Of a stretch of DNA of 60,424 nt, positions 6,851 to 44,067 are shown one piece after another (positions within the stretch are counted from its first letter, which is position 1; each line of letters opens with the position of its first letter). The notes below the pieces were generated by a model, which had not been told where the DNA came from, did not search any database, and saw nothing but the letters and a program-made list of their open reading frames with translations. Both the position numbers and the translations under genes were made by a program. Source of the stretch: an uncultured Methanosarcinales archaeon. Lineage in GTDB: Archaea > Nanobdellota > Nanobdellia > Woesearchaeales > DATGWN01. Location: the NCBI GenBank assembly GCA_964557345.1, contig CAZKZU010000002.1:1-60424 (forward strand), given 5' to 3'.

Positions 6851-9800
6851 ATGCAAGGTAGAATGATAAAATTAGATAGGATACAAAAGAGCGGTAAACA
6901 ACTAAATTTAGGGCTCTTCTTTTTCATGATATTATCTATAACTATATCGCTATTAACATTAATTAGTACTGAAGTAAACGCTACATCAACATGGGGTTGT
7001 TGTGCAGATACTGTTACTGGATGTAGAAATGTTTACACAACCGCGCAAATCCAAGATTGTGTAAATAGCCACTATGCCTTTGAGGGAGATAAATCTTGTT
7101 TTCCAATTGCATCTAATCCTGGGCTTAATATAACTACAAATCCTGTTTGTAATCAAGTGGGGTGCTGCTGTTTTAATGATGGAACGTTTAGTGCTAGAGT
7201 CACAGGACAAGCGTGCCTGTCTTTATCAGGAACATTAAAACAAGGAACTGATTGCGGAGTTGTTTGTAATTCAGTTGTTCCAATTAATACTACTTGCGCT
7301 AGCCTAGGGGGATCCTGGTGTAACTCGACGTCAAAAGCAGCGGGTGCAATCGCAATAACAGGAATTACTGATTACTCAGGTAAACCTGGAACTGAGTATA
7401 CTTGTTATAATCTTCAATGTACAACCCCTGCTAATAATTGTCAAAAAGGAAATAGTAGTTATGAAATATATTGCTTGGACGGAATCAATAACGACCAAGA
7501 TTGTAGTACAGATGTCGCAGATACTGATTGTCAAAATAGCGTGGGTGGATTTGTTAAAAATCAATACGGAATTGGGATTTCTAATGTAAAAATAAAAATA
7601 GTGAATAAACTCGCTAATGTATTTGGAAAAGACGAAATATTTTATACTTATTCGTCAGGGAATTTAGGGACTCTTTTTTATCAAGGATTATCGAAAGGAA
7701 ATTACGATGTTTTTGTAGATGATCCAATATATACTAATACTAATTCAATAAGCGGATTTACAATAGATGAAAATACTAAATTTATTTCAGGAATTCAAAT
7801 AACAGTAGTTCAAAAAAATTCATATAAATTGAAAGGGAATGTAGTTAGCAATAATGGTAGCGCAGTTGTTGGCGCCTTAGTTGTATTAGACAATAGTGAG
7901 TATAGCGCATACACAAATTCAACAGGCGGCTTTGTGATTGAAAATGTTAAAGCGGGAAATTATTTTGGAATTGCGTACAAGACAGAATATATTTCATCAA
8001 TTAGAACTCCGACATCAGTAGGACTTGGAAAAGAAAATTATTTAGCATTACAGCTTAGAACTGGAGACTGCAGTACGAGTCCTTCTGCACCAAAAATCTC
8101 GTCTATTAATAATGTTAAAGGAAAAACGGACATAATACTTAATTTTAATTCGAATAATTGTACCCCTAACTCGTATACTATTTATAGGTGTAATAAAGCG
8201 ATTGGATTGTGTAGTAATTCTTCGGAATATACTCCGGTTGCAAATGCAGGAGCAGGAGTTATAAGTTATTTAGATAGCGGACTTTTCTGGAATACTACTT
8301 ATAATTATATTGTTCTAGCAAATTATGGAACTGGTAGCTCAATGAAAAGCGTAGCTTCTTTGCCTGCAAGTATAAATACTGGAAATGAGAATTGTAACGG
8401 AGTTATTAATTTCAATAAGCATTGTAATTATAATTTTATAACTTTGTCTGGGACTAAAACTCTTAGCTCTAGCACAGTATTTTATTGTAATGCTAATAAT
8501 AGCATAACCACTGTTGGTAGTTGTACAAATAATTCTAAATGTACTGAGGATCCTTCTATCTCAGGAACAGATACTGCGTATTGTAGACAAATAGATAATT
8601 GCAGTCCTTTAAGTAATAATTATTTTGGACTGTTTTTTGGAAATAATTTTAATAATAATGCTTGCCAAGGACAAAGTAATCAAAAATTTTGCGCCCTAGA
8701 TAATTCTATAACAAACGTAAACGCTTGTAATAATTGTAAAGACTATACAACTTGTGTTGATTATAAAACTGAAAATGCATGTAATGTTAATAATTGCGGG
8801 CTTGGAAGTTGTGAATGGAAAACAACAGATTCTACATTAAAGTTAGGAATTTGTATTGATAAAATTAAATCTAATTGTGATTCTTGTACTGATGTTTTTA
8901 ACCGAGTATTTGGTTCATGTAATTCTGATGTGTGTAATTCTTTAGGTAATTGTAGTTTTAGTAAAACTAGTGGTGCTTGTAATAGTTGCAGTGCTACTTC
9001 ATGTTATGATTATGATGGTGCAAACTCTTGCGGCAATTCGCCTTATGGAGCAATAAATCTAAAAACAAATGCGGTAATTATTGCACAAGATACTTGTAAA
9101 ATAGGTGTTTGCGCTTGGAATCCTACGGTAAGTGATGGAACTTGCTTTAAAGATGCTGACGCTGACGGAAGAGATGATTGTGAAAGTGCCTCGATAATAT
9201 TCGGGGCTAATGGAACTAATGCGTACACACAAGATTATTGTAAAAAAGACGTATTGCCTCCTGAAACAAAAATATTGCTTAATAAAAAAAGTTTTAATCC
9301 TTCTGGACCTATGAACGGAAAAATTACTGCTACTTTTAATTCATTAGATAGAGTTTCTAATTCAGATGCGTTTAGAACTAAAATCTTTGGAGTAAAGGAG
9401 GTTTATTTCTGCATCGACGATGTTGCAGGAAATTATTGTAAAAACACAAAACAAAACTATAACACTGTACCAAAAGTAGATGGAAATTATCAGATCGACA
9501 TAAGTGGTGGAACATATGTTGCATTAGGAATTGGAAGTAATAAATATTATCTAAAAAGCGGTACAAATATATTAAAATATTATGCTAAAGATTATGCTAA
9601 TAATATGGAAATTGTAAAATCAGAGGAGTTTTACGTTGATACTTTCCCTCCCGCGCTAAATGTTTCTTTTGTTAAATTCCCAGATATGGTTAGTGGAACT
9701 TCGGATGTATCCATTTTTGTCGAAGCAGATGAAGATGTGTATTGTTATTCGGAACAAGCGGATTGTAATGTATACGGAAATTGTGATAATAATAAGTTTA

Positions 9801-12800
9801 CTGGAAATATTACTGAAGCATTTTTACAAGCTAAAGCTCAACAGTTTGCAAAAACATATACTAGAGAAGTTTTCGGTCTTGAAGATGGAACGTATTTGGT
9901 CAAAACTGTTTGTGTTGATAAATCAGGTAACGTAAATAATAAAACTTCGGTTTTGAGTATAAATGTAGATTCTAGAATTTTTGACGGGGTTCCAAACGGC
10001 GCAATTAATTACACTAATGTCATTTTAAAAGTAAAAACTGCATCTAACGTACAATGCAAATACGGGACTTCAATAAGTGCTAATTTTAATACAATGCAAA
10101 ATTTAATGACTAAAAAAGCAGTGGATACATACTACGAGCATACTGCACAAATCGTAGTTAGTGGAAATTCAGTTCAAAATTATTATGTCAGATGTAATTA
10201 TGATCCTGTTGCAATGGAAAAAATAAGTTTTGTTGTCGATAATATTAAACCAAGTGTAAAAGCAATATTGAATGGAATTGAAATCGGCGATGGCGCTACG
10301 TGGACTCAAAATGCTAATTTGGAATTAAGATGTTCTGATTCCCCTGAATTCGGCTTTGGATGTAACCAAACATATTATTGCACTTCTGACATCGTTAATT
10401 TTAATAATCTTCAAAATGTAGTTTCTTGCACGCCAACAACTACGTATGTTGGACCATTAAACATATCATCTCCAAAAACAGTTTGCTTTTATTCGGTTGA
10501 AAATATTCGAAGTGTTGATAATAAAATTGTAGGAGGTTTGAGTTCAGGAATAATATGTAGGAATATTCTGACAAGTGATTCTGAACCTATATTGTCAATT
10601 AACAATATATCAAATACTACTAATAGAAATAGCATTCTTATTGGAGGAGGAGTTAGAAGTAACCTTCCAGGAAATAAAAAATTATTTTTCAAAATCAACT
10701 CAGAGCTAATTAAAACTGTTGATACTTTGAGCAACTTTAGCTTCCAAACAACTCTAACTAGAGGAACGCCAGTCCACGGGAATAAATATGAATTGACAAT
10801 GTATGCACAAGATGTTTCAGGAAAACAATCTGAATCTTATTCTAAAATTATTACCTACGATTTATCTGGACCAGAAGTTAAAGATTTAAAAGTTCAAACT
10901 CTAAGTACCGGAGATAATTATGGTTCTAATATGGAATTCGGATATAGGGGTCAAATAAGGTTAACTGCAGAAGATGATTACAGCGGAGTGTCTAAAGTTT
11001 TAGTCGAGATTGAAGGAATTCAAAGTGAACTAAAATTCAATGCTCTAAATGGAAAATGGGAGGGCGCAATAAATTCACAAGATTTACCTATCGGTAATTT
11101 TACACCAAAAATTACTTTGTATGATGGACTTGGAAACATTAATGTCGTTTATCTTACTGATGCTGTCGAAATAATTGATGCAATAAATCCAGCATTTACT
11201 ATTAATCTTAAAAGACAGTATTTTAATACAGACGCTCCATTTATAGATATAAATACTAGTGTACTTACTAGTTGTTCAATAAAGTATACTGCTAAAAATA
11301 ATATAAATTATTCGCACCTATTCTCAACTAGTTATTCTAAAGATTTTTCAGTTCAAGTTAAATCTCAACTATATTCTGATGTTGATGACGAGGTTAAGAA
11401 TATAATCAGAGTTGATTGTGTTGATCGAAATGGTAGCAAAGTTGCTAGAATGTTTAACACTTTTGTTGATCTTAAAAAACCAGTTTATTTTGCGGGAATA
11501 TCCTCATTATCTGCTGAAAAGGTAATAACTATGAGAAACGAGATAGATTATCTTGGATTAAAAGCAGAAGACTATTTATTATATTTTAAATCTGATGAAC
11601 CAGTTAATTGCAGATATGCGAAAAGTAATGAACTTAGCTCTAATGGATATGGTTACAATTACACGCTCAGAAATTTTATTAGAAACTTCACTAATTCAAG
11701 AGATACTAATTATATTGTTAATGATGTATCTGACGGAATTTACTTACAAGATAAAACTTCTTATGACTATAAAATACTTTGTGAAGATAGAGCAGGAAAT
11801 CAAGGAAACATTAAAACCATTAAAATAAGTGTAGATTCAGATAGCAGGCCTTATCTATTTAATCTGGACGAGAAACATATAATTAATAATAATAATAGTA
11901 ATAGTAATAATAACGCACTACAAGGAATTAATTTCTATACTGCAAGACCGACTGAGTGCACATATAGCATCAATAGCAGTGAAATAAAAAATCTGGAACA
12001 TAAAAATATTTCGCAAAACATATATGAGTACACTGTAAATACTTCAGACATTATTTCAAATTATGCAGACGGAACTTATGAATTACGGGTTTTATGTAAA
12101 AAACAAAATACAACTAATGCATTCTACACTGTAAGATCTAGTATTATTAAAGACACAATTTCACCCATACTTATATCTGCTAACGGGAAATTGACTGACA
12201 AAACATCGACAGAAAACGTTCTGCCTTATTTTAATGAAGATAAAAAAGAAATTATAAATACTGCTGGCGGAATTATAAATTTTAGTTTTATAACTAATGA
12301 AGATACGAACGTTGCAATTTACAACAACAATGTTCTTACTGCAATAAGTTCAAAAGGAAAAAATCTGAATTTAGAGATTCCATTGATATACGGACTTAAC
12401 GATCTTGAAATTGCAGTAATCGATATTGCAGGAAACTATATTTCCACAAGAGTTCCAGTTATTTCTTCTAGAAATACTCCTGATATAAAACTATCAGAAC
12501 TTTTAGATAACTCTCTTTCAAATAGTTACCAAGGAAATATAAAGTCAAATGTTGCACTAAATACTCCTAATATTAAACTTAAATATGCTCAGAAAGAAAT
12601 AACTATTCCTATTACCCTTATCCCTAATTCTCTTATTCCGAACAGCGGAGTTAATAATTATTATTATAATATATCATTTAGTAAAAATATTCTTTACAGT
12701 CTAATTGATAATAATAATAATAATAATAATAATAATGGCAGTATCAATAATAGTGCAAATAATTTGTCAGGACTTAGTTCTTTTGATTGGCAATATTCTA

Positions 12801-15800
12801 AAAATAATAGTGCATATAATCAAAATTTGATTGATCCGAAAGTCTCAAACATTATTTCACTAGAACTTTATGATGCAGGTCAAAAAATACAAACAGAAGT
12901 TTTCTTATACAGTCCTTTTTCAGAAAGTCTAAAAATATATTCTCCATCGTATAAAGATATTTCTAACGGTGAAATAAGTAATTATAATGAAATAAAAATC
13001 AGCGGAAAAGTAAACAATGATAACTATATCATAGGAGGAAGATATTCTGTAGAAACTACTAATTCGCAAAATAAGATTTCTCCAATAATGGTTCTTGCAA
13101 AAATTATTTCTGAAGGGAGAGGGTTTAAAACTTTTAAATTTAATAATGCGGTTTTACAAGAATTAAACATTAATCAAAATAAATATTCTGTAAGTATTCC
13201 TTATTTAGATAGCGGATACTTATATTTAGAATTATTGAACGATTTAGGAACTTCAGTTATTAAATCAACATTTTTTAGAACTGAGAAAAATAGTCCTTAT
13301 CCAACAATCACAATTTTCCCCGGCGGAGGAGATACTGCTTATTCAAATAGGCCTCAATTCTTAGTAGAAAATAGTGTCCTTGGTAGAATTAAAACAGCAT
13401 ACGTGTCTAATTTTGACCTGTCTAAAAATTATTCTGTTTCTGGAATAGATCCTCAATTTAATTTCAGAGATATAATTATACAAAACGATGCATTGGATGG
13501 AGAAAATGTGTATTATTTGAATGTCATCATAGAAGATAGTAAAGGCAATCTTGTTGAAAAGCAATTTGCTTTTATATTTTCAGTTGCAGACTTTAATTTG
13601 TATCTTAAAACACCTAAATATGGAGTAATGACTAGTAATAATCAAAATGTATATTTAGAGTCAAATATGCCTGCTATGTGCAAATATGCATATTCAGATA
13701 AACCTTATTCCAATATGACTAATGTTACTAATTATTATTCAAGCAAACATAGGTTTATTACAAATATTACTACTAGAGAAAATGTGTATATACGATGTGA
13801 TGCATATGCCGATTCAACTAATAAATTATTTAATTATACTCTTGAAATTGATAACATTGCGCCACAAATTACAAGCATAACTATCGACAATGCTAAATCA
13901 AAGAGCGGAGGATTCTTAATAACTGAATATCCTCTTGAAGCACAAGTAAAAATAAATACGAATAAATTGGCATATTGTAGATATGATATTTCTAAAAATG
14001 AAGCTGGTTTGAAAACGACGTTTGCAAATATGAGGGATGTTGCAATATCTGAATGTGTCGGCATTCAAGATGGAAATTTTTGTTTTAACACTCAATCTAA
14101 TATTAAAATTCCTAATTTACAAGATAAGACTAAGTACTATTTACAAACTATTTGCCAAGGCAAATCTGAATTAAATAGTTCTATTGCAAAAAGAACAATT
14201 GAAGTTGATCTAGGAAAAGATAGCATTAACATTATATCTCCAAATACATATGAGTCAAATCTTAGGATAGACGTTGTTGTTGAAACTAAAAATAATGCGG
14301 AATATTGTGCTATTTCCTCTGGAAATTCAACTCAATTCAGTAATTTAACAAAAGTTAGTGATAAAAGATTTAACTCTTCAATTAGTTTTACAACGACAGG
14401 TCAAAAATCAATAACAATTAGTTGTAAAGTTGGCGAAGAGATATACAATAGAACAAAAATATTCACAATCGATAACACAGTTCCTTTAAGAGGATATATA
14501 GTTCATGCTAATTCGACAACTATTAATTATAGTTTATCTGCAAAAGCAGAGAACTTTTCAGATCCAGAATCAGATATTGAAAGGTATGAGTTTGCAATTG
14601 GCACGGCGCCATTCGGGCAAGATAATTGGAATTCCGTATTAAATTGGACTAGCTCTAGTTCAAGTAATCTTGTGGCAAATAACTTAAATTTAGCTAGAAA
14701 AACAACTTTCTACTGGAGCGTCAGGGTGTTGAATAAGGCTAATTTGTATTCAGTGCCTATTTCTAGCGCAGGAATTTATGTTGAAAATGTAAGCGTTATA
14801 GTTGAATCTGTGCCTAGCTGCAGAAACGGGATTAAAGATGCGAATGAAACTGGAGTAGATTGCGGTGAAAAATGTAATAAAGAATGTCCTGAAGGAACTC
14901 TTTGTCAATACGATGATGACTGTTTTTCGATTGCACTCACTTGTACTAATAACGAATGTAGTTATAGGAATTCAGGTGGCGGTAGTCACACTACAGCGTG
15001 TACTGATGGAATTAAAGATGGAAATGAGACTGGAGTAGACTGTGGAGAGAGCTGTAATAAAGAATGTCCTGAAGGAACTATTTGCGAGTTCGACGTAGAT
15101 TGTTTCTCAGCTAACTTGAAATGTAGTAACAATCTTTGTAGTAAAAGTGATAATAATATTTTTATTAATAGAACATTAGATGAGCCAGATATTAGCATAA
15201 ATAATAATTCTAGTAATTGGTGGATTTATTTAATTATACTCCTTATTGGAATATTAATTATTGCAGTGGTACTTGCATACTATTTCCTCATATATAAAAA
15301 GAAAGATGACGAAACAAATATTTCAAATTATGGTAATATGAATGGAACAACTGGAATGAATACAACTACTCCTAATATGAGTAATAGAGTAAACCCTGCT
15401 GATCAGAATAGACCAAATGTTTCTATTAATAATAAGGGAAATAATAGCAATAATAATGCTCCTAACGTTCCAATATCAAATGTGCCGATATATGCTGAAC
15501 CTGAAGAAAGAAAAGAAGATTTAATTAAAAGGATACTTGAAAAGAAATTAATTGAAGAGAGAAAAAAGAAAGGTAATCAAGAACGAGAAGGACGATTCAA
15601 TTTATTTGAAAGTAAAAAGCGGTTTTCAGATGGGAATAGTGCTTACGGTTCAGGAAATAAGGTTTCTACAAGTAGTAGTGCTGAACAACCAAAAAGAGTT
15701 GTTAAAGAAGAAATAAAACCTAAAGTCCAAGAAACCATTTACAAATCAAATGATGCTGAAAAAGACATTAAGACCGCTGTTAAAAAAGAAATAATTACTG

Positions 15801-15925
15801 AAAAAGATAATCTTGCTAAATTAAAGGAAGATAAAAATAATTCTTTAAATGGGATAAGGGGTCTTAAGAAAAAGAACCAGGAAGTCACTAAAAATACAAA
15901 AAGTAGTAGTAATAAAAAGAGGTAA
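6851..15925 (+). CDS. Giant (3024 aa) Cys-rich cell-surface protein / putative adhesin with a C-terminal TM anchor and cytoplasmic tail
   Basis: Uninterrupted 9 kb ORF. N-terminal signal-anchor LGLFFFMILSITISLLTLIS. Cys-rich N-terminal modules. Carboxypeptidase-regulatory/PEGA-like beta-sandwich stretches (e.g. GNVVSNNGSAVVGALVVLDNSEYSAYTNSTGGFVIENVKAGNY). Many NxS/T sequons. Two tandem Cys-rich modules. TM helix WWIYLIILLIGILIIAVVLAYYFLIY. Tail of roughly 240 aa rich in Asn, then Lys/Glu. Confidence 0.85.
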   Translation: MQGRMIKLDRIQKSGKQLNLGLFFFMILSITISLLTLISTEVNATSTWGCCADTVTGCRNVYTTAQIQDCVNSHYAFEGDKSCFPIASNPGLNITTNPVCNQVGCCCFNDGTFSARVTGQACLSLSGTLKQGTDCGVVCNSVVPINTTCASLGGSWCNSTSKAAGAIAITGITDYSGKPGTEYTCYNLQCTTPANNCQKGNSSYEIYCLDGINNDQDCSTDVADTDCQNSVGGFVKNQYGIGISNVKIKIVNKLANVFGKDEIFYTYSSGNLGTLFYQGLSKGNYDVFVDDPIYTNTNSISGFTIDENTKFISGIQITVVQKNSYKLKGNVVSNNGSAVVGALVVLDNSEYSAYTNSTGGFVIENVKAGNYFGIAYKTEYISSIRTPTSVGLGKENYLALQLRTGDCSTSPSAPKISSINNVKGKTDIILNFNSNNCTPNSYTIYRCNKAIGLCSNSSEYTPVANAGAGVISYLDSGLFWNTTYNYIVLANYGTGSSMKSVASLPASINTGNENCNGVINFNKHCNYNFITLSGTKTLSSSTVFYCNANNSITTVGSCTNNSKCTEDPSISGTDTAYCRQIDNCSPLSNNYFGLFFGNNFNNNACQGQSNQKFCALDNSITNVNACNNCKDYTTCVDYKTENACNVNNCGLGSCEWKTTDSTLKLGICIDKIKSNCDSCTDVFNRVFGSCNSDVCNSLGNCSFSKTSGACNSCSATSCYDYDGANSCGNSPYGAINLKTNAVIIAQDTCKIGVCAWNPTVSDGTCFKDADADGRDDCESASIIFGANGTNAYTQDYCKKDVLPPETKILLNKKSFNPSGPMNGKITATFNSLDRVSNSDAFRTKIFGVKEVYFCIDDVAGNYCKNTKQNYNTVPKVDGNYQIDISGGTYVALGIGSNKYYLKSGTNILKYYAKDYANNMEIVKSEEFYVDTFPPALNVSFVKFPDMVSGTSDVSIFVEADEDVYCYSEQADCNVYGNCDNNKFTGNITEAFLQAKAQQFAKTYTREVFGLEDGTYLVKTVCVDKSGNVNNKTSVLSINVDSRIFDGVPNGAINYTNVILKVKTASNVQCKYGTSISANFNTMQNLMTKKAVDTYYEHTAQIVVSGNSVQNYYVRCNYDPVAMEKISFVVDNIKPSVKAILNGIEIGDGATWTQNANLELRCSDSPEFGFGCNQTYYCTSDIVNFNNLQNVVSCTPTTTYVGPLNISSPKTVCFYSVENIRSVDNKIVGGLSSGIICRNILTSDSEPILSINNISNTTNRNSILIGGGVRSNLPGNKKLFFKINSELIKTVDTLSNFSFQTTLTRGTPVHGNKYELTMYAQDVSGKQSESYSKIITYDLSGPEVKDLKVQTLSTGDNYGSNMEFGYRGQIRLTAEDDYSGVSKVLVEIEGIQSELKFNALNGKWEGAINSQDLPIGNFTPKITLYDGLGNINVVYLTDAVEIIDAINPAFTINLKRQYFNTDAPFIDINTSVLTSCSIKYTAKNNINYSHLFSTSYSKDFSVQVKSQLYSDVDDEVKNIIRVDCVDRNGSKVARMFNTFVDLKKPVYFAGISSLSAEKVITMRNEIDYLGLKAEDYLLYFKSDEPVNCRYAKSNELSSNGYGYNYTLRNFIRNFTNSRDTNYIVNDVSDGIYLQDKTSYDYKILCEDRAGNQGNIKTIKISVDSDSRPYLFNLDEKHIINNNNSNSNNNALQGINFYTARPTECTYSINSSEIKNLEHKNISQNIYEYTVNTSDIISNYADGTYELRVLCKKQNTTNAFYTVRSSIIKDTISPILISANGKLTDKTSTENVLPYFNEDKKEIINTAGGIINFSFITNEDTNVAIYNNNVLTAISSKGKNLNLEIPLIYGLNDLEIAVIDIAGNYISTRVPVISSRNTPDIKLSELLDNSLSNSYQGNIKSNVALNTPNIKLKYAQKEITIPITLIPNSLIPNSGVNNYYYNISFSKNILYSLIDNNNNNNNNNGSINNSANNLSGLSSFDWQYSKNNSAYNQNLIDPKVSNIISLELYDAGQKIQTEVFLYSPFSESLKIYSPSYKDISNGEISNYNEIKISGKVNNDNYIIGGRYSVETTNSQNKISPIMVLAKIISEGRGFKTFKFNNAVLQELNINQNKYSVSIPYLDSGYLYLELLNDLGTSVIKSTFFRTEKNSPYPTITIFPGGGDTAYSNRPQFLVENSVLGRIKTAYVSNFDLSKNYSVSGIDPQFNFRDIIIQNDALDGENVYYLNVIIEDSKGNLVEKQFAFIFSVADFNLYLKTPKYGVMTSNNQNVYLESNMPAMCKYAYSDKPYSNMTNVTNYYSSKHRFITNITTRENVYIRCDAYADSTNKLFNYTLEIDNIAPQITSITIDNAKSKSGGFLITEYPLEAQVKINTNKLAYCRYDISKNEAGLKTTFANMRDVAISECVGIQDGNFCFNTQSNIKIPNLQDKTKYYLQTICQGKSELNSSIAKRTIEVDLGKDSINIISPNTYESNLRIDVVVETKNNAEYCAISSGNSTQFSNLTKVSDKRFNSSISFTTTGQKSITISCKVGEEIYNRTKIFTIDNTVPLRGYIVHANSTTINYSLSAKAENFSDPESDIERYEFAIGTAPFGQDNWNSVLNWTSSSSSNLVANNLNLARKTTFYWSVRVLNKANLYSVPISSAGIYVENVSVIVESVPSCRNGIKDANETGVDCGEKCNKECPEGTLCQYDDDCFSIALTCTNNECSYRNSGGGSHTTACTDGIKDGNETGVDCGESCNKECPEGTICEFDVDCFSANLKCSNNLCSKSDNNIFINRTLDEPDISINNNSSNWWIYLIILLIGILIIAVVLAYYFLIYKKKDDETNISNYGNMNGTTGMNTTTPNMSNRVNPADQNRPNVSINNKGNNSNNNAPNVPISNVPIYAEPEERKEDLIKRILEKKLIEERKKKGNQEREGRFNLFESKKRFSDGNSAYGSGNKVSTSSSAEQPKRVVKEEIKPKVQETIYKSNDAEKDIKTAVKKEIITEKDNLAKLKEDKNNSLNGIRGLKKKNQEVTKNTKSSSNKKR
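12710..12736 (+). repeat. (AAT)9 trinucleotide microsatellite inside the giant gene, encoding a poly-Asn run
   Basis: gat (aat)x9 ggc reads as D-N9-G in frame. A second, imperfect aat/agt run lies at about 11881-11915. Confidence 0.9.
14819..15142 (+). repeat. Tandem duplication of a 48-aa Cys-rich module near the C-terminus of the giant protein
   Basis: CRNGIKDANETGVDCGEKCNKECPEGTLCQYDDDCFSIALTCTNNECS (14819-14962) and CTDGIKDGNETGVDCGESCNKECPEGTICEFDVDCFSANLKCSNNLCS (14999-15142). They share an identical 27-nt stretch, tgtaataaagaatgtcctgaaggaact. Confidence 0.85.
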
Positions 15926-34736: not shown

Positions 34737-36224
34737 ATGACTACTTTAGAAGATATGCTTGAAAGTGAGTTTGTTGCTTTAGGTATTGAATCTACGAATA
34801 AGGAACGTCTTATCGGCTTAGTTAATCCATTGAAAATACACCATAAGCCAACTTATGATCATTCTATTCGTGTTGGTCTTCTTTGTTCTAAAATTGCTCG
34901 ACATATGCATATTGATCCAAACGCACTATTTTATCCTGGATTAACACATGATGTAGGAAAATTAAAGATTTCAGCAAATATTTTGAATAAAACTGATGGA
35001 TTAAGTGCAGAAGACTGGGCGGAAATAAAAAAGCACCCTTATTATACACATCAAATATTAAGAGGTTGCTTTGATTTTTCTAGCGAAGTAGGTGGAAGAC
35101 ATCATCAACATCAAGAAGGAGGATATCCAGACCATTTACCTGAAAGCACAATACCTTTTTCAAAAAGAACTTTGTTAATGAGAGATTTTTTTTCAAGAAT
35201 AATTTCTCTTGTTGATTTTTATGATTCAATAACTACTCGAGTTAATAATAAATTTGGTGAAAAAAGAAAATTAAATGAGGATGAAGCTAAAGCAATATTT
35301 TTAATGAAAAATTTAGATCAAAAATATTTGATTGAAGATCTCTATACCAATGGTATTTTTGGAGAAAAAGAAGTTTTAAGTGAAGCAGATGCTAATTCTA
35401 TCAAAGATTCTCACGATATAATTTACAATTCTATTTGGACAGGATGGAATGGTCAAAGAAATCCTCGAGAAACAAGACGATTTATTTCTCTTGCGTGTGC
35501 TTTAGAACCATTATCAGATAAAGTTGGATGTACTACTCGAGAAACTGATTTAAATCGATATCAAAAACTGGAATATTTTATTGCAGGCGCAATAAATATC
35601 GGGGATGCATTTGAGGATCTTGCAAAAAGAATTTCTGAGTCAAGAATACAACCTGAACTAATTTATGATTTAGCATATCGTGCACAAGCTGATTGTAAAA
35701 AAAATCGCTCTGGAGGACGAGTGAATCAAGGAATAATTGAAATGTTGATTCCAATTGTTACTGCACAAATGCTTTATGATCCTAATTATCAATCAACTCC
35801 TGATGAAATTTTAAAAAAAGCAGTTGATGTAATGAAAAATACTACTCCGAGTGATGTTAGAGAATTAATTAAAATGAAACGTTTGGCCTATGATTTAAGC
35901 GGGTATCATGATAGAATAGTTCCAGATTATCCCGAAGCAAAAAACGTGTTCGAATATTATAGCTTAGATTTACAACATTCAAAAAAACTTACAAGTGTAA
36001 AACATAATGAGGAATTCGTATTAGGTTTTCCATCGATTAAAAAAATTCAAGATATGATTATGCTAAGCAAATTACGTGATTTTAATGGAAAAGTAGAAGA
36101 AGCATATAATAATGTTAGACGAGAGGATCATTTTAGGGTTTCTGCAGGACTGACTGCAGATTGTACTGCTTGTGGTATTTATTTAGTTCTTTCTCATCAT
36201 CCAAAAGACAAGGTTGTGAGATAG
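34737..36224 (+). CDS. HD-GYP domain protein fused to a CitG-like (triphosphoribosyl-dephospho-CoA synthase family) C-terminal domain
   Basis: N-terminal half: HSIRVG, LTHDVGKLKI, IKKHPYYTH and RHHQHQEGGYPDHL, which matches the HHExxDGSGYP class. C-terminal half: EPLSDKVGCTTRETD, GGRVNQGIIEMLIPIVTAQ and SAGLTADCTACGIYLVLS. I read these as colinear with E. coli CitG blocks (PKPGLVD...HKDM, GVNTHKGSIFSLGLL, SPGGSADLL..WFL). The C-terminal call is from memory and is less certain. Confidence 0.65.
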   Translation: MTTLEDMLESEFVALGIESTNKERLIGLVNPLKIHHKPTYDHSIRVGLLCSKIARHMHIDPNALFYPGLTHDVGKLKISANILNKTDGLSAEDWAEIKKHPYYTHQILRGCFDFSSEVGGRHHQHQEGGYPDHLPESTIPFSKRTLLMRDFFSRIISLVDFYDSITTRVNNKFGEKRKLNEDEAKAIFLMKNLDQKYLIEDLYTNGIFGEKEVLSEADANSIKDSHDIIYNSIWTGWNGQRNPRETRRFISLACALEPLSDKVGCTTRETDLNRYQKLEYFIAGAINIGDAFEDLAKRISESRIQPELIYDLAYRAQADCKKNRSGGRVNQGIIEMLIPIVTAQMLYDPNYQSTPDEILKKAVDVMKNTTPSDVRELIKMKRLAYDLSGYHDRIVPDYPEAKNVFEYYSLDLQHSKKLTSVKHNEEFVLGFPSIKKIQDMIMLSKLRDFNGKVEEAYNNVRREDHFRVSAGLTADCTACGIYLVLSHHPKDKVVR

Positions 36225-37754
36225 ATGGAAAGATCAAAAATTGCAATTTGGAATTTGACTGATTCAAAATTACCTGAACATATTGATTTTGAAGAAGGAA
36301 TTGGTCCATATAAATTAGCAACTATTGCTAAAGAAAATGGTTTTGATGTTGAGGTTTTTCAGGGAAATCATTTTGGTTGTAATTCCGAACAAATATGCGC
36401 AAAAACTGAAGAGGTTTTAAATAATAAAGGTCTAGTTGGAATAAGTTCTTTTTCTACTGCAAAAGGTTTATTAGAGCAATTAGCTAAAACTGAAACTTTT
36501 TCTAAATACCCTTTAGTTTTAGGTGGCGCTGGGGCTACGACAACTCCTGAACAATATTTAGAGTTATTTAAAGGAAAAAATCCTCTGGTATTAGTGGAGG
36601 GAGATGGTGAATTATTATTTGGACAAATTTTAGATACAAATCCTGCAGATTGGCATACAATTGATGGATTATGGACATACAGTTCTAATGGACTTTTGAA
36701 TAAAGGAAATTTTCAAACTCTTTCTAATTTAGATGAAAGCCCAATTATTGATTTGAAGCCAAGTTTTGCTCGAAAAATAGCTGAATCAAAAGTTAAAGAA
36801 TCATCTTCAGATTTAGTTGGAAAAATTATTGCAATTCGAGCTTTACAGTTTTCCCATTTTGAAACACGACGAGGATGTTATTATAATTGTGGTTTTTGTA
36901 GTGAACCTCAACTTGCAAAGAAGGGAGTTAGAAAAATGTCTCCACAACGAGCGGTTGATGAAATGGTGCATCTTTATAGTAATTTTGGAATTACTTTTTT
37001 TAATTTTTCAGATAATATTGCATTCGACAAACAAGAGTGGTGGCAAGAATTTGCAACAGAGTTGAAGACTAGCGGAATTTCTCAATACATTACATTTGGA
37101 GGTTATGGAACCCCGAAATTTTTTGCGTTACAAAATTGGTTTTCAGAAACAATTCCTGCATTAGCAGAAGTAGGATTATCTTTTATCACATTAGGTGTTC
37201 AGTCAGGATCCAAACGAGTTTTAACTGATATTATTAAAAGACCTGTGGATGATCCTGAAAATGCATTACAAGTTGTTAAAAATGCAGTTCCTCTTGGAAT
37301 AAATGTAAAGACTGATTTTATTGTTGGACATCCAACTGAAACACTTTTTGATTTAGAAAATACTTATACTGCGGTAAAAAGAATTTACGACTCTGGCGGA
37401 CAAGCTTTTGTTAGAAAATTAGGCATTGTTCCTAATTCACAATATGATATAAATTTGAGTAGTGGTAATTACGTTTTACCCAAGTGGACTGATGAATTTA
37501 CTTCAGTTGCTGAAAAATCATTAGCTTATCACGGAAAAAAAGATTCTTATAAAAATATATCTAAACAATTAGGTGTGGTTCCTAATTTAGAATTTATCGA
37601 TAGGTTTAAAGGAGTCAGATTTCCCAAACAGAGTATGAGTTTAGAGGAACTTCGTAAGAGTTTATCTACATTAAGGAATAGTGATATGTACGACGACGTT
37701 AAAATAAATTATGAATTATTATATGAGCTAGTTATTCAACAAAAGTCAGATTAA
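36225..37754 (+). CDS. B12-binding-domain radical SAM enzyme
   Basis: N-terminal Rossmann/B12-like region (VGISSFSTAKGLLEQL...PLVLGGAGATTTPEQYL) and the CxxxCxxC cluster RRGCYYNCGFCSE. The ATG directly abuts the upstream stop (tagATG). Confidence 0.85.
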   Translation: MERSKIAIWNLTDSKLPEHIDFEEGIGPYKLATIAKENGFDVEVFQGNHFGCNSEQICAKTEEVLNNKGLVGISSFSTAKGLLEQLAKTETFSKYPLVLGGAGATTTPEQYLELFKGKNPLVLVEGDGELLFGQILDTNPADWHTIDGLWTYSSNGLLNKGNFQTLSNLDESPIIDLKPSFARKIAESKVKESSSDLVGKIIAIRALQFSHFETRRGCYYNCGFCSEPQLAKKGVRKMSPQRAVDEMVHLYSNFGITFFNFSDNIAFDKQEWWQEFATELKTSGISQYITFGGYGTPKFFALQNWFSETIPALAEVGLSFITLGVQSGSKRVLTDIIKRPVDDPENALQVVKNAVPLGINVKTDFIVGHPTETLFDLENTYTAVKRIYDSGGQAFVRKLGIVPNSQYDINLSSGNYVLPKWTDEFTSVAEKSLAYHGKKDSYKNISKQLGVVPNLEFIDRFKGVRFPKQSMSLEELRKSLSTLRNSDMYDDVKINYELLYELVIQQKSD

Positions 37755-37838
37755 TTTTTTGTTTAGAATTTAATATCAGATAATTCTCAATTTAGTTTTA
37801 TTATTGTTATTACTATGTTTTTAATTTCACACAGTAAT

Positions 37839-43245: not shown

Positions 43246-43293
43246 TGTTATTTGAATTTTTAGTTAATGTGTTTTTTCATAAGAGGTTTAATT

Positions 43294-44067
43294 ATGATTG
43301 AGATATCTTCTATTGCATCTGGAAGTAATGGTAATTGTTATTATATTGGAAATGAAACGAGTGCAATTCTAATTGATGCGGGAGTTAGTTGTAAACAGAT
43401 TGTAAATAGAATGAGTTCTCTTGGTTTAGATATTAGTAAACTCAAAGGCATTTTTGTAACGCACGAACATTCTGATCACATTAAAGGAATAAATGTTTTT
43501 TCAACGAAATTTAAAATTCCAATTTATATATCTGAGAAAACACATGCTAATTCGCCTATTACTGTAGCTTCTAACTTAGTTAATTTTTTTAAAGTTAACG
43601 AACATATTGATGTAGGGAATTTTTGTGTACATTCTTTTGCAAAGCAACACGATGCCGCTGACCCGTGTAGTTTTATTATACATTCAGAAGGAAAAAAGAT
43701 CGCAGTTTTAACAGACATTGGTGCGCCTTGTAAAAATGTTATCAAGGTTTTAAAGGAAAGTGATGTCGTGTTTTTAGAATCAAATTATGACGATGAAATG
43801 TTGGCAAATGGCAAATATCCTTATTTTTTAAAGAAAAGAATATCCGGAGATTGCGGGCATATGTCTAATTATCAGGCGGGACTTTTAGTTTTACAACATG
43901 CAAAAGATAGTTTAACTCATGTTTTTTTATCACATTTGTCTGAAAATAACAATACTCCTGAATTAGCACATTCTACTTTTACTGACATGATTAAAGAACG
44001 AAAGGATCTTCGTCCTAATGTAATTCTGACTGATCGGGATAAAGAAACGCAAATTTTTAGATTTTAA
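43294..44067 (+). CDS. Metallo-beta-lactamase fold hydrolase
   Basis: MIEISSIASGSNGNCYYIG and THEHSDH motifs. AAGAGG Shine-Dalgarno-like sequence 8 nt upstream of the ATG at 43294. The track start at 43267 adds 9 poorly supported residues. Confidence 0.8.
   Translation: MIEISSIASGSNGNCYYIGNETSAILIDAGVSCKQIVNRMSSLGLDISKLKGIFVTHEHSDHIKGINVFSTKFKIPIYISEKTHANSPITVASNLVNFFKVNEHIDVGNFCVHSFAKQHDAADPCSFIIHSEGKKIAVLTDIGAPCKNVIKVLKESDVVFLESNYDDEMLANGKYPYFLKKRISGDCGHMSNYQAGLLVLQHAKDSLTHVFLSHLSENNNTPELAHSTFTDMIKERKDLRPNVILTDRDKETQIFRF

Follow-up and report, generated by a model that had tools for sequence, protein, structure and literature searches.

Two abutting genes in the window, by which we mean the whole 60,424-nucleotide stretch of DNA, from a tiny DPANN-type archaeon, analysed here, probably make or process an uncharacterised ribosylated nucleotide-like molecule. 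Judged by its sequence and structure model, the product of the first gene (A) would be a rigid two-domain enzyme that joins an intact HD-GYP-type metal-dependent phosphohydrolase to a catalytic-looking CitG-superfamily domain, and the second gene (B) encodes a predicted radical SAM enzyme of B12 architecture. Our main reading, to which we give a probability of roughly 45%, is that the two form a module for ATP-derived triphosphoribosyl transfer in which the HD domain trims phosphates and the radical SAM enzyme optionally tailors a nucleotide-like molecule. An HD-GYP::CitG-like architecture with a radical SAM partner appears to be undescribed, the closest precedent being the OxsA/OxsB pair.

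Locus and domain architecture of gene A

The two genes are predicted to form a single operon, since they abut, a TATA-like element precedes A and a T6 run follows B (Table 1). Both reading frames lie where the initial annotation had placed them. Its further observations, that the stop codon of A runs straight into the start codon of B (tagATG) and that a TATA box precedes the first gene alone, held up on inspection: the junction reads ...gtgagaTAG/ATGgaa with a gap of 0 nt, there is no intergenic space upstream of B, and TTTATAAA is found upstream of A. The placement of this element is not simply a product of AT-richness, because the TTTAWAWA motif class is depleted across the window (65 found against about 125 expected), and its distance from the ATG of A would imply a leaderless or very-short-leader transcript. 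The gene after B is on the minus strand and convergent. Genes for MCM, a Lig1-type ATP-dependent DNA ligase and SMC/ScpA mark the window as archaeal, and the closest homologues of A were found on Woesearchaeota MAG contigs.

Table 1. Features of the A/B locus, in window coordinates
Feature	Position	Strand	Basis
TATA-box-like TTTATAAA	34706..34713	+	24-31 nt 5' of gene A ATG; sequence match
Gene A, fusion protein of 495 aa	34737..36224	+	ORF listing
HD-GYP-type HD domain of A, ~residues 30-170	34824..35246	+	Pfam HD, HD_5; PDB profile; Foldseek
CitG-like all-alpha domain of A, ~residues 243-495	35463..36221	+	Pfam CitG; hhalign; reciprocal retrieval; colinear motifs
Gene B, predicted radical SAM enzyme of 509 aa	36225..37754	+	ORF listing
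Rossmann-like B12-binding-type N-terminal domain of B, ~residues 1-150	36225..36674	+	Sub-cutoff Pfam; fold
CX3CX2C [4Fe-4S]/SAM cluster motif of B (C218, C222, C225)	36876..36899	+	Invariant in 17/17 B family members
Oligo-T run T6, candidate archaeal terminator	37755..37760	+	Directly 3' of B stop; sequence only

About 70 full-length homologues of A were found, at 39-65% identity. Most of these relatives come from DPANN archaea and CPR bacteria, and the family as a whole is confined to these and similar small-genome lineages. Source annotations include 'HD domain-containing protein', 'putative nucleotidyltransferase with HDIG domain' and 'triphosphoribosyl-dephospho-CoA synthase'. The AlphaFold2 model of A has a pLDDT of 91 and a pTM of 0.87, the latter indicating that the protein is modelled confidently as a single unit. 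Across 38 sequences at 39-65% identity, 16 positions are invariant in the HD-GYP half, all metal ligands included, and more than 25 in the CitG-like half; by these patterns both domains look catalytic.

The full HD-GYP signature reported by the initial annotation was confirmed. The translation contains the motifs YDH42S, LTH71D72VGK and H122H123QHQEGGYP, the HD-GYP-type Pfam model HD_5 (PF13487) scores 33.7 bits against a cutoff of 27.2 (Pfam HD, 36.6 bits against 22), and the metal ligands H42, H71-D72, H100, H122-H123 and D160/D163 are invariant in the 38 family sequences. When the family profile was compared with the PDB (PmGH 4mcw, E 6.9e-22; V-cGAP3 5z7c, E 2.4e-12), these columns aligned with the ligands of PmGH, and Foldseek matched the N-terminal domain to 4mcw, 4r8z and 9rbz at probability 1.00 and also to PgpH. 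In HD_5 match, sequence and fold, the domain is thus like the HD-GYP phosphodiesterases PmGH, V-cGAP3, PA4781 (4r8z) and DvhD (9rbz). The H...HD...H...HH...D pattern is retained and the window protein also has GYP (as GGYP), but across the family only YP is invariant (Y130 and P131, with G129 varying), and the equivalent of the third-metal Glu of PmGH is, as read from the alignments, not conserved. Unlike the phosphodiesterases, A carries no REC, GAF or other sensor domain and goes with no cyclase; its HD-GYP domain is joined to a transferase-like one, and its host range is archaeal/CPR.

The C-terminal domain is best read, from profile comparisons, as a distant but real CitG homologue that belongs to the CitG superfamily and is not a CitG orthologue. 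Pfam CitG (PF01874) aligns residues 249-392 of A to model positions 3-145 of 284, at 29.7 bits against a cutoff of 27 (E 6.3e-7), and 40 of 67 standalone family members also match this model, with no other family recurrent. A profile built from the standalone members reached bona fide CitG proteins (E 3.5e-10 and 4.9e-9) in a search of 1.84 billion representatives, and hhalign joined the CitG-like family to a trio of CitG sequences (P0271, P0273 and E. coli CitG) with 98.5% probability and E 1.6e-15; against E. coli CitG alone the alignment was not significant. The homology to CitG/MdcB (EC 2.4.2.52) that had been proposed for the whole C-terminal half is therefore upheld as a distant relationship over at least ~140 residues, as profile alignment covers only the first ~140 residues, or half, of the domain. 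In the second half, two short motifs, G-[YF]-P and G-x-[ST]-A-D, were read by eye; together with E-x4-K-x-G-x-x-x-R and G-x-x-N-x-G they are shared with E. coli CitG in colinear order. Domain length is also similar (about 255-280 aa), as is the all-alpha composition, and the PDB profile search and Foldseek returned no solved CitG structure for fold comparison. Invariant positions in the domain are R248, E257, K262, T266, R268, N287, Q317, N323, G327-R328, E335, D373, R393, H423-N424-E426 and D475.

Beside CitG/MdcB, the CitG-like family is a very distant, small sister family, with only 187 representative clusters matched among the 1.84 billion and CitG proper reached at only ~1e-9. The CitG-like domain of A differs from CitG/MdcB in being fused to HD-GYP, in its tie to a radical SAM enzyme and in its occurrence in DPANN/CPR. 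The domain also occurs as a standalone protein, which argues that it is an enzyme in its own right. In P0182 it is fused to HAD_PNKP, a second, unrelated phosphatase fold, from which we argue that phosphate removal would be mechanistically tied to the CitG-like domain.

The radical SAM partner

Sequence and fold model together identify B as a likely B12-architecture radical SAM enzyme, in agreement with the initial annotation. Pfam Radical_SAM scores 60.2 bits and the CX3CX2C core is in place, while the B12-binding model reaches 21.5 bits, below its cutoff of 32.1 (E 2e-4), with PF02310 recorded for 7 of 17 homologues. A fold-level check backs the sub-cutoff match. The N-terminal domain has alternating beta-alpha secondary structure in the AlphaFold2 model (pLDDT 90), and the best structural match of B in Foldseek was OxsB at 3.5e-15, with MgmA, AprD4, CysS, TokK and TsrM at ~1e-14 to 1e-13. 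Fold and domain order, a Rossmann-like N-terminal domain followed by a CX3CX2C TIM-barrel core, are those of class B radical SAM enzymes (TsrM, TokK, CysS, MgmA/MJ0865, HpnJ and BchE). AprD4, a top fold match, carries a B12-type domain without cobalamin, so the fold of B can lack B12 and cobalamin binding by B is putative. In contrast to the class B enzymes named, B forms a small family of its own, with 17 homologues in 5.8 billion proteins; NCBIfam gave weak matches to TIGR04013, TIGR04072 and HpnJ, and no equivalog cutoff was reached (best 72.5 bits against 251).

Gene order across genomes ties B to one half of A. In 11 of 11 distinct loci examined, which span archaea and CPR bacteria and encode proteins at 36-65% identity to those of the window, B adjoins a co-directional CitG-like gene, at a spacing of -23 to +11 nt. 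Three arrangements were found: HD-GYP::CitG-like followed by B; c4, B and CitG-like; and domain X (fused or split), CitG-like and B. The adjacency thus survives both changed gene order and a changed N-terminal partner, and since B joins CitG-like genes with other N-terminal partners, it tracks the CitG-like domain. B is genomically dependent on the CitG-like domain and not on the HD-GYP domain. In the other direction the dependence is loose: B is present at only 7 of 38 informative A loci, which makes it an accessory to the CitG-like domain, and with about 80% of A genes lacking it, B is not needed for the core role of A. Conservation of the A-B pair in other genomes, which the initial annotation had named as a check on its reading, was accordingly found, CPR bacteria included; the link, though, is between B and the CitG-like domain and not HD-GYP, and most A genes stand without B.

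OxsA, an HD-domain phosphohydrolase, and OxsB, a B12-dependent radical SAM enzyme, reportedly act in oxetanocin-A biosynthesis. As with A and B, an HD phosphohydrolase and a B12-architecture radical SAM enzyme are encoded together, and the Oxs system acts on adenine nucleotides. The initial annotation was aware of no described pathway with the combination seen here; the Oxs system provides a precedent for HD plus B12 radical SAM on a nucleotide, but it has no CitG-like component, which is the component that B tracks. Orthology of B with OxsB and of the HD domain of A with OxsA was considered and rejected. At only ~15% identity, B stands no nearer to OxsB than to the rest of the B12 radical SAM enzymes, with MgmA, AprD4, TokK and TsrM matching equally well, and the HD domain of A is of the HD-GYP type, which that of OxsA is not. 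The resemblance is functional and architectural only.

Proposed mechanism and alternative functions

CitG/MdcB converts ATP and 3'-dephospho-CoA to adenine and 2'-(5''-triphosphoribosyl)-3'-dephospho-CoA; in general form, ATP and an acceptor hydroxyl yield adenine and an acceptor-O-alpha-ribosyl-5''-triphosphate. To our knowledge this chemistry, with ATP as ribosyl donor and adenine released, is known from only one pathway. By analogy, the CitG-like domain of A may use ATP as a triphosphoribosyl donor to an acceptor hydroxyl outside the citrate-lyase cofactor precursor pathway. The HD-GYP phosphohydrolase would then trim the 5''-triphosphate of the product, or alternatively strip a phosphate to expose the acceptor hydroxyl, and at about one locus in five B might go on to methylate or rearrange that same nucleotide-like intermediate, much as OxsB acts in concert with OxsA, an HD protein. 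We count the coupling of B to CitG-like genes in all 11 loci and three arrangements in favour of such a joint module. Against trimming of a triphosphate, every characterised HD-GYP domain known to us is a cyclic-dinucleotide phosphodiesterase and none trims triphosphates. The neighbourhoods of A are heterogeneous. ADP-ribosylglycohydrolase, NAPRTase, PncA-like isochorismatase, a Nudix fusion and NadA lie beside A at several CPR loci and one Woesearchaeota locus, and context suggests, as candidate acceptors, an ADP-containing cofactor (NAD, ADP-ribose or dephospho-CoA-like) or an RNA end; the rpsP-KH-X-trmD operon and the RlmH gene that accompany distant standalone CitG-like genes belong to these hints as well. 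The proposal of the initial annotation, that the pair makes or processes a modified nucleotide, cofactor or signalling molecule, is plausible.

Several other functions were weighed against this module. In the PDB, the N-terminal domain has its closest relatives among active c-di-GMP/cGAMP phosphodiesterases, and the window protein has a GYP motif, so the HD-GYP domain could be a genuine cyclic (di)nucleotide phosphodiesterase, with the CitG-like domain serving as a nucleotide sensor or as an ATP N-glycosidase-type effector that uses water as acceptor (ATP to adenine and ribose-5-triphosphate); A would then act in second-messenger or ATP-depletion control and not in biosynthesis. Two cNMP-binding::CitG-like fusions (P0083 and P0151) point towards such a signalling role, and one viral contig carries a standalone CitG-like gene. 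We consider it unlikely nonetheless. Across 55 loci no recurrent cyclase gene was seen near A, GGDEF and DAC families were not found among 87 immediate neighbours, PADLOC gave no defence-system match for A, and as far as we know c-di-GMP signalling is generally missing in archaea. The housekeeping-like neighbourhoods also speak against signalling, with distant members in ribosomal/tRNA operons, and an enzyme fits better than a sensor for a C-terminal domain that has more invariant residues than the HD domain and also stands alone. The strict linkage of B to the CitG-like gene would be left unexplained. Those same distant standalone members, inside an rpsP-KH-X-trmD operon between the KH-protein and trmD genes (L077/L078) and beside an RlmH-type SPOUT methyltransferase (L079), are what would favour action on RNA: the CitG-like domain would place a ribosyl group on a 2'-OH of RNA or tRNA, at a nucleotide or an end, much as 2'-O-ribosyl phosphate is formed, an HD or HAD phosphatase would prepare the end or trim the product, and B would methylate like the tRNA/rRNA radical SAM enzymes. 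The HAD_PNKP partner is a polynucleotide-kinase-type 3'-phosphatase domain, cysteinyl-tRNA synthetase is the immediate neighbour of A at 3 loci, and MiaB/RimO are among the structural matches of B, though weaker than the B12 enzymes. These are a handful of contexts, mostly from members only ~25% identical to the domain of A; domain-model searches detected no RNA-binding domain in A or B, and the flanking genes in the window are of unrelated kinds (an M24 peptidase and a sugar epimerase). We hold an RNA substrate to be less likely again than signalling.

A role in salvage ranks lower still. Here A would turn scavenged ATP into a ribose-phosphate donor for NAD salvage in organisms of minimal metabolism, with PPi, Pi or water attacking C1' and the 5-triphosphate then being trimmed, so that PRPP or ribose phosphates result; PRPP contains the alpha anomer, which is what a CitG-like inversion at C1' would yield. 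This would suit the restriction of the family to small-genome lineages and the presence of NAPRTase (a PRPP consumer), PncA-like and NadA genes beside A at six CPR loci (L013, L017, L028, L050, L062 and L071), as well as an isochorismatase and a NAPRTase-like gene downstream of A on the same strand at the Woesearchaeota locus L004. However, every step of the chemistry is inferred, the synteny at the CPR loci may come from one clade, most of its NAD genes are on the strand opposite A and are therefore not co-transcribed with it, no NAD genes adjoin A in the window, and B is left without a role. Very improbable is the canonical CitG/MdcB function of making the triphosphoribosyl-dephospho-CoA for the acyl carrier protein of citrate lyase or malonate decarboxylase, to which the above-cutoff Pfam match and the label of homologue P0049 ('triphosphoribosyl-dephospho-CoA synthase') would point. 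The family is far removed from CitG proper, E. coli CitX, CitD, CitC, CitE and CitF queries gave no credible tblastn match in 78 A-family loci plus the window (719 kb of flanks), and a Pfam census of the 87 immediate neighbours contained no CitX/MdcG, acyl carrier, citrate lyase or malonate decarboxylase family. Equally improbable is an adjacency of A and B that reflects chance or compaction with no functional link: genomes of this kind are compact, and about four-fifths of A loci lack B, but a family of so few homologues is found co-directional with and adjoining a CitG-like gene at every locus, in archaea and CPR bacteria alike, with start and stop codons overlapping or no more than 11 nt apart and through changes of gene order and partner.

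A broader form of the triphosphoribosyl-transfer module is more doubtful than the module itself but possible. The CitG-like family may represent an unrecognised ATP-dependent O-(triphospho)ribosylation in DPANN/CPR that yields a new ribosylated cofactor, nucleotide or RNA modification. Phosphate processing would fall to swappable phosphohydrolases (HD-GYP, HAD-PNKP type and possibly c4 and domain X), the dedicated radical SAM enzyme of B12 type would carry out a C-methylation or a rearrangement, and the ADP-ribosylglycohydrolases of some CPR loci would act as erasers of the ribose-ribose bond.

Implications for DPANN and CPR metabolism

The analysis of the A family corrects the database annotation of these proteins. 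DPANN and CPR organisms have minimal metabolism and rely on scavenged nucleotides and cofactors, and A, which is conserved, to all appearances catalytically intact and nearly exclusive to these lineages, makes a good candidate for an unrecognised salvage or modification step. If the proposed reaction is true, a second use of CitG chemistry would be new enzymology, all the more so with a phosphohydrolase and a B12-type radical SAM enzyme coupled to it, and might bring to light a new cofactor, nucleotide or RNA modification.

Layout of the operon and domain identities

Genes A (the HD-GYP::CitG-like fusion) and B (the radical SAM gene) occupy exactly the positions first annotated, on the same strand, and the ATG of B directly follows the TAG of A. 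A TATA-like element precedes A, the 0-nt junction leaves no promoter room before B, and a T6 run stands just 3' of the B stop codon, a geometry that fits the two-gene operon proposed in the initial annotation, with its single promoter before the first gene. The octamer TTTAWAWA is depleted approximately 2-fold in the window (65 copies observed versus about 125 expected from dinucleotide shuffles), which makes the position of the element before A meaningful. Many of the copies checked against ORF maps sit just outside ORFs; depletion and placement are consistent with selection against spurious promoters. The pair is flanked upstream by an M24 peptidase and downstream by a convergent NAD-dependent sugar epimerase, neither related to A or B, and an Rfam scan of the whole 60-kb window detected no RNA genes and hence no riboswitch or leader RNA.

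The window is AT-rich (G+C approximately 30%). Genes for MCM, an ATP-dependent DNA ligase of the Lig1 type and SMC/ScpA mark it as archaeal, and Woesearchaeota MAG contigs carry the relatives nearest to A. The window also contains an ORF that is very large for a small-genome archaeon and, 5.5 kb downstream of the operon, a metallo-beta-lactamase-fold protein. The latter scored below threshold against the anti-Pycsar Apyc1 cyclic-nucleotide phosphodiesterase family (26.9 bits, cutoff 50) and is probably a generic hydrolase of its fold.

Coordinates of the features discussed (L-numbers denote homologous loci from other genomes and metagenomes)
Feature	Sequence	Position	Strand	Detail
Gene A	window	34737..36224	+	495 aa
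Gene B	window	36225..37754	+	509 aa
TATA-like element TTTATAAA	window	24-31 nt upstream of A's ATG		sequence motif
Large ORF	window	6851-15925	+	3024 aa
Metallo-beta-lactamase-fold protein	window	43267-44067	+	
c4	L024	3788-4450		
c4	L025	5376-5996		
c4	L026	85-798		
c4	L027	2649-3293		
c4	L032	6476-7108		
c4	L075	4355-5017		
Domain X	L074	3241-4230		N-terminus of 587-aa fusion
Domain X	L083	2917-3861		split, separate upstream gene
A with NAD-salvage/ADP-ribose neighbours	L004	2625-5211		Woesearchaeota
A with NAD-salvage/ADP-ribose neighbours	L009	4407-5432		
A with NAD-salvage/ADP-ribose neighbours	L015	8842-10047		
Distant standalone CitG-like protein	L077	6001-6765		~25% identity
Distant standalone CitG-like protein	L078	2312-3076		~25% identity
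Distant standalone CitG-like protein	L079	904-1758		~25% identity
Viral standalone CitG-like gene and kinase-like ORF	L080	5505-6798		IMGVR_UViG_3300027779_003464, 118.6 kb

The N-terminal half of A is an intact HD-GYP-type hydrolase, as had been read from its signature. Pfam HD and HD_5 both scored above cutoff, a 38-member family profile matched the HD-GYP phosphodiesterase PmGH (4mcw, E 6.9e-22) and V-cGAP3 (E 2.4e-12), and the AlphaFold2 model (pLDDT 91, pTM 0.87) superposed on HD-GYP structures in Foldseek; the metal ligands H42, H71-D72, H100, H122-H123 and D160/D163 are invariant family-wide.

The proposed CitG homology of the C-terminal half was borne out, as a distant relation. Pfam CitG scored 29.7 bits against a cutoff of 27, with half of the model covered. 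With E. coli CitG as the only reference sequence, hhalign of the family was not significant; significance (98.5%, E 1.6e-15, 141 columns) was reached only when two bona fide archaeal-type CitG proteins, P0271 and P0273, were added. A profile built from nine standalone CitG-like homologues retrieved only 187 proteins from 1.84 billion representatives, among them these two full-length CitG proteins (237 and 204 bits to PF01874) at E 3.5e-10 and 4.9e-9. PF01874 was matched by 40 of the 67 standalone relatives and other families were never recurrent. The second half of the domain carries, in CitG order, G-[YF]-P and G-x-[ST]-A-D, both of them CitG motifs. Profile and Foldseek searches of the PDB and a Foldseek search of BFVD were empty for the domain, the two PDB searches found no solved CitG structure, and tblastn against phage and plasmid collections gave no match. 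Judged by sequence, this half of A is no CitG orthologue but forms a distant branch of the superfamily, rich in invariant polar residues of its own.

The B12-type assignment of B was upheld by fold despite a sub-threshold Pfam B12-binding match. Radical_SAM matched clearly, the CX3CX2C motif is invariant in the family, and the predicted structure (pLDDT 90) matched OxsB, MgmA, AprD4, CysS, TokK and TsrM at E 1e-13 to 1e-15, which confirms the architecture at the level of the model; cobalamin use is putative. No NCBIfam equivalog was found, PADLOC gave only a generic radical SAM match (PDC-M51A, 33.7 bits), and homologues numbered only 17 among 5.8 billion protein clusters.

Linkage of B to the CitG-like domain

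Genome and metagenome scans yielded 55 non-redundant A-family loci, and B-family contigs were also looked up directly. Conservation of the gene pair, on which the initial annotation had made its reading depend, held from the side of B: at all 11 distinct loci B sits directly beside a co-directional CitG-like gene, the two being -23 to +11 nt apart. The link is not to the HD-GYP domain, however, and from the side of A the gene was present in only 7 of 38 informative loci and missing beside some close relatives of A (61-65% identity). B is thus a dedicated accessory of the CitG-like domain.

Three gene arrangements were found. The first, HD-GYP::CitG-like followed by B, occurs in the window, at L001, L029, L035, L039 and L081, and in CPR bacteria at L020/L073 (Moraniibacteria) and L082 (Parcubacteria). 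In the second (L024/L075), c4, here a protein of 220 aa, precedes B and then a standalone CitG-like gene, and a TrmB-type regulator is encoded divergently. In the third, an unannotated domain, X, takes the place of HD-GYP beside the CitG-like domain, either fused to it (L074) or separate upstream (L083), and B then follows.

Protein c4 is conserved (206-237 aa, with invariant HxxH, RPHD and YHH motifs). Its gene always directly adjoins one for a CitG-like protein, the start codon of one overlapping the stop codon of the other, in one case (L032) downstream of the fused gene. Pfam, NCBIfam, PDB, PADLOC and PHROG gave no match; an HD-domain identity was unsupported by Pfam, NCBIfam or PDB and by hhalign against A1. 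The protein is a candidate for a new metal-dependent partner enzyme. Domain X (approximately 310-330 aa, with conserved ALDG, [DN]HH, ND-x-DQD and WGG motifs) also occurs in the homologous proteins P0079-P0082 and P0156. As the N-terminus of 570-587-aa fusions it was considered as a DHH-type phosphoesterase, an identity left unsupported, since Pfam and PDB gave no match. The 1.84-billion-protein representative search further returned CitG-like fusions to cNMP-binding (P0083, P0151), HAD_PNKP (P0182) and MGS-like (P0266) domains.

Gene neighbourhoods and alternative roles

NAD-salvage and ADP-ribose genes lie beside A in several CPR loci (L013, L017, L028, L050, L062, L071) and in one Woesearchaeota locus, and TrmB-like regulators lie near A in 9 loci. 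The former encode NadA, NAPRTase, a PncA-like isochorismatase, a nucleoside-2-deoxyribosyltransferase-like::Nudix fusion, an ADP-ribosylglycohydrolase and an unannotated HD-like protein of 218 aa; most run opposite to A in the CPR loci, and in L004 and L009 they share its strand. A salvage role for A is improbable. Bdellovibrionales and Gammaproteobacteria, given for L015, L018 and L023, are source labels only. The c4 proteins of L024 and L075 are identical and the source names the L075 proteins 'Nanoarchaeota archaeon'; the 'Methanosarcinales archaeon' MAG label on L024 and L025 may be a binning artefact.

A signalling or effector role is unlikely. Fusions to cNMP-binding domains suggest cyclic-nucleotide regulation of some CitG-like members. 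PADLOC was empty for A, c4 and the 587-aa fusion and PHROGs returned no match, so that A is not a known defence protein. An RNA-directed role for A and B is likewise unlikely. Distant standalone CitG-like genes lie between a KH-domain gene and trmD in an rpsP operon, the usual rimM slot (L077/L078), or adjoin an RlmH-type SPOUT methyltransferase and a HIT protein (L079), contexts hinting that part of the superfamily may have a function related to RNA. In a putative large virus (L080), a 160-aa P-loop kinase-like ORF runs at its end into the start of a standalone gene for a CitG-like protein of 272 aa (35% identity to the domain of A), and the locus had no PHROG matches. Canonical CitG function is very improbable and was rejected on genomic context, the canonical partners being absent from A-family neighbourhoods by tblastn and neighbour census. 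Chance adjacency of A and B is hardly credible beside the 11 loci.

Candidate chemistry of the A-B system

The components belong to known superfamilies, and databases give A-family proteins generic labels. The fusion and its radical SAM partnership appear to be absent from the searchable literature, as the initial annotation had supposed of a combined pathway: no paper contained both 'CitG' and 'HD-GYP', or both 'triphosphoribosyl-dephospho-CoA synthase' and 'radical SAM', and searches for CitG or triphosphoribosyl in archaea gave unrelated genome papers only.

Our tentative general model, to which we assign a probability of roughly 45%, is ATP-derived triphosphoribosyl transfer with coupled phosphate removal and tailoring by B. 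By analogy with CitG, the CitG-like domain would split off adenine from ATP and join 5-triphosphoribose to an acceptor hydroxyl. The triphosphate would be trimmed, or the acceptor unmasked; fusion of the domain to two unrelated phosphohydrolase folds argues for such a coupled step. B would tailor the nucleotide-like intermediate in the manner of OxsB, which works alongside the HD protein OxsA. Candidate acceptors are ADP-containing cofactors, chemically like dephospho-CoA; alternatives would be an RNA end, or PPi/Pi. ADP-ribosylglycohydrolases could cleave the alpha(1''-2') ribose-ribose bond, the type that CitG makes, and those encoded near A could act on such a bond.

The fusion and its pairing with B are real and conserved, and the range of fusion partners suggests, at the sequence level, a recurrent link of CitG-like domains to phosphatases.
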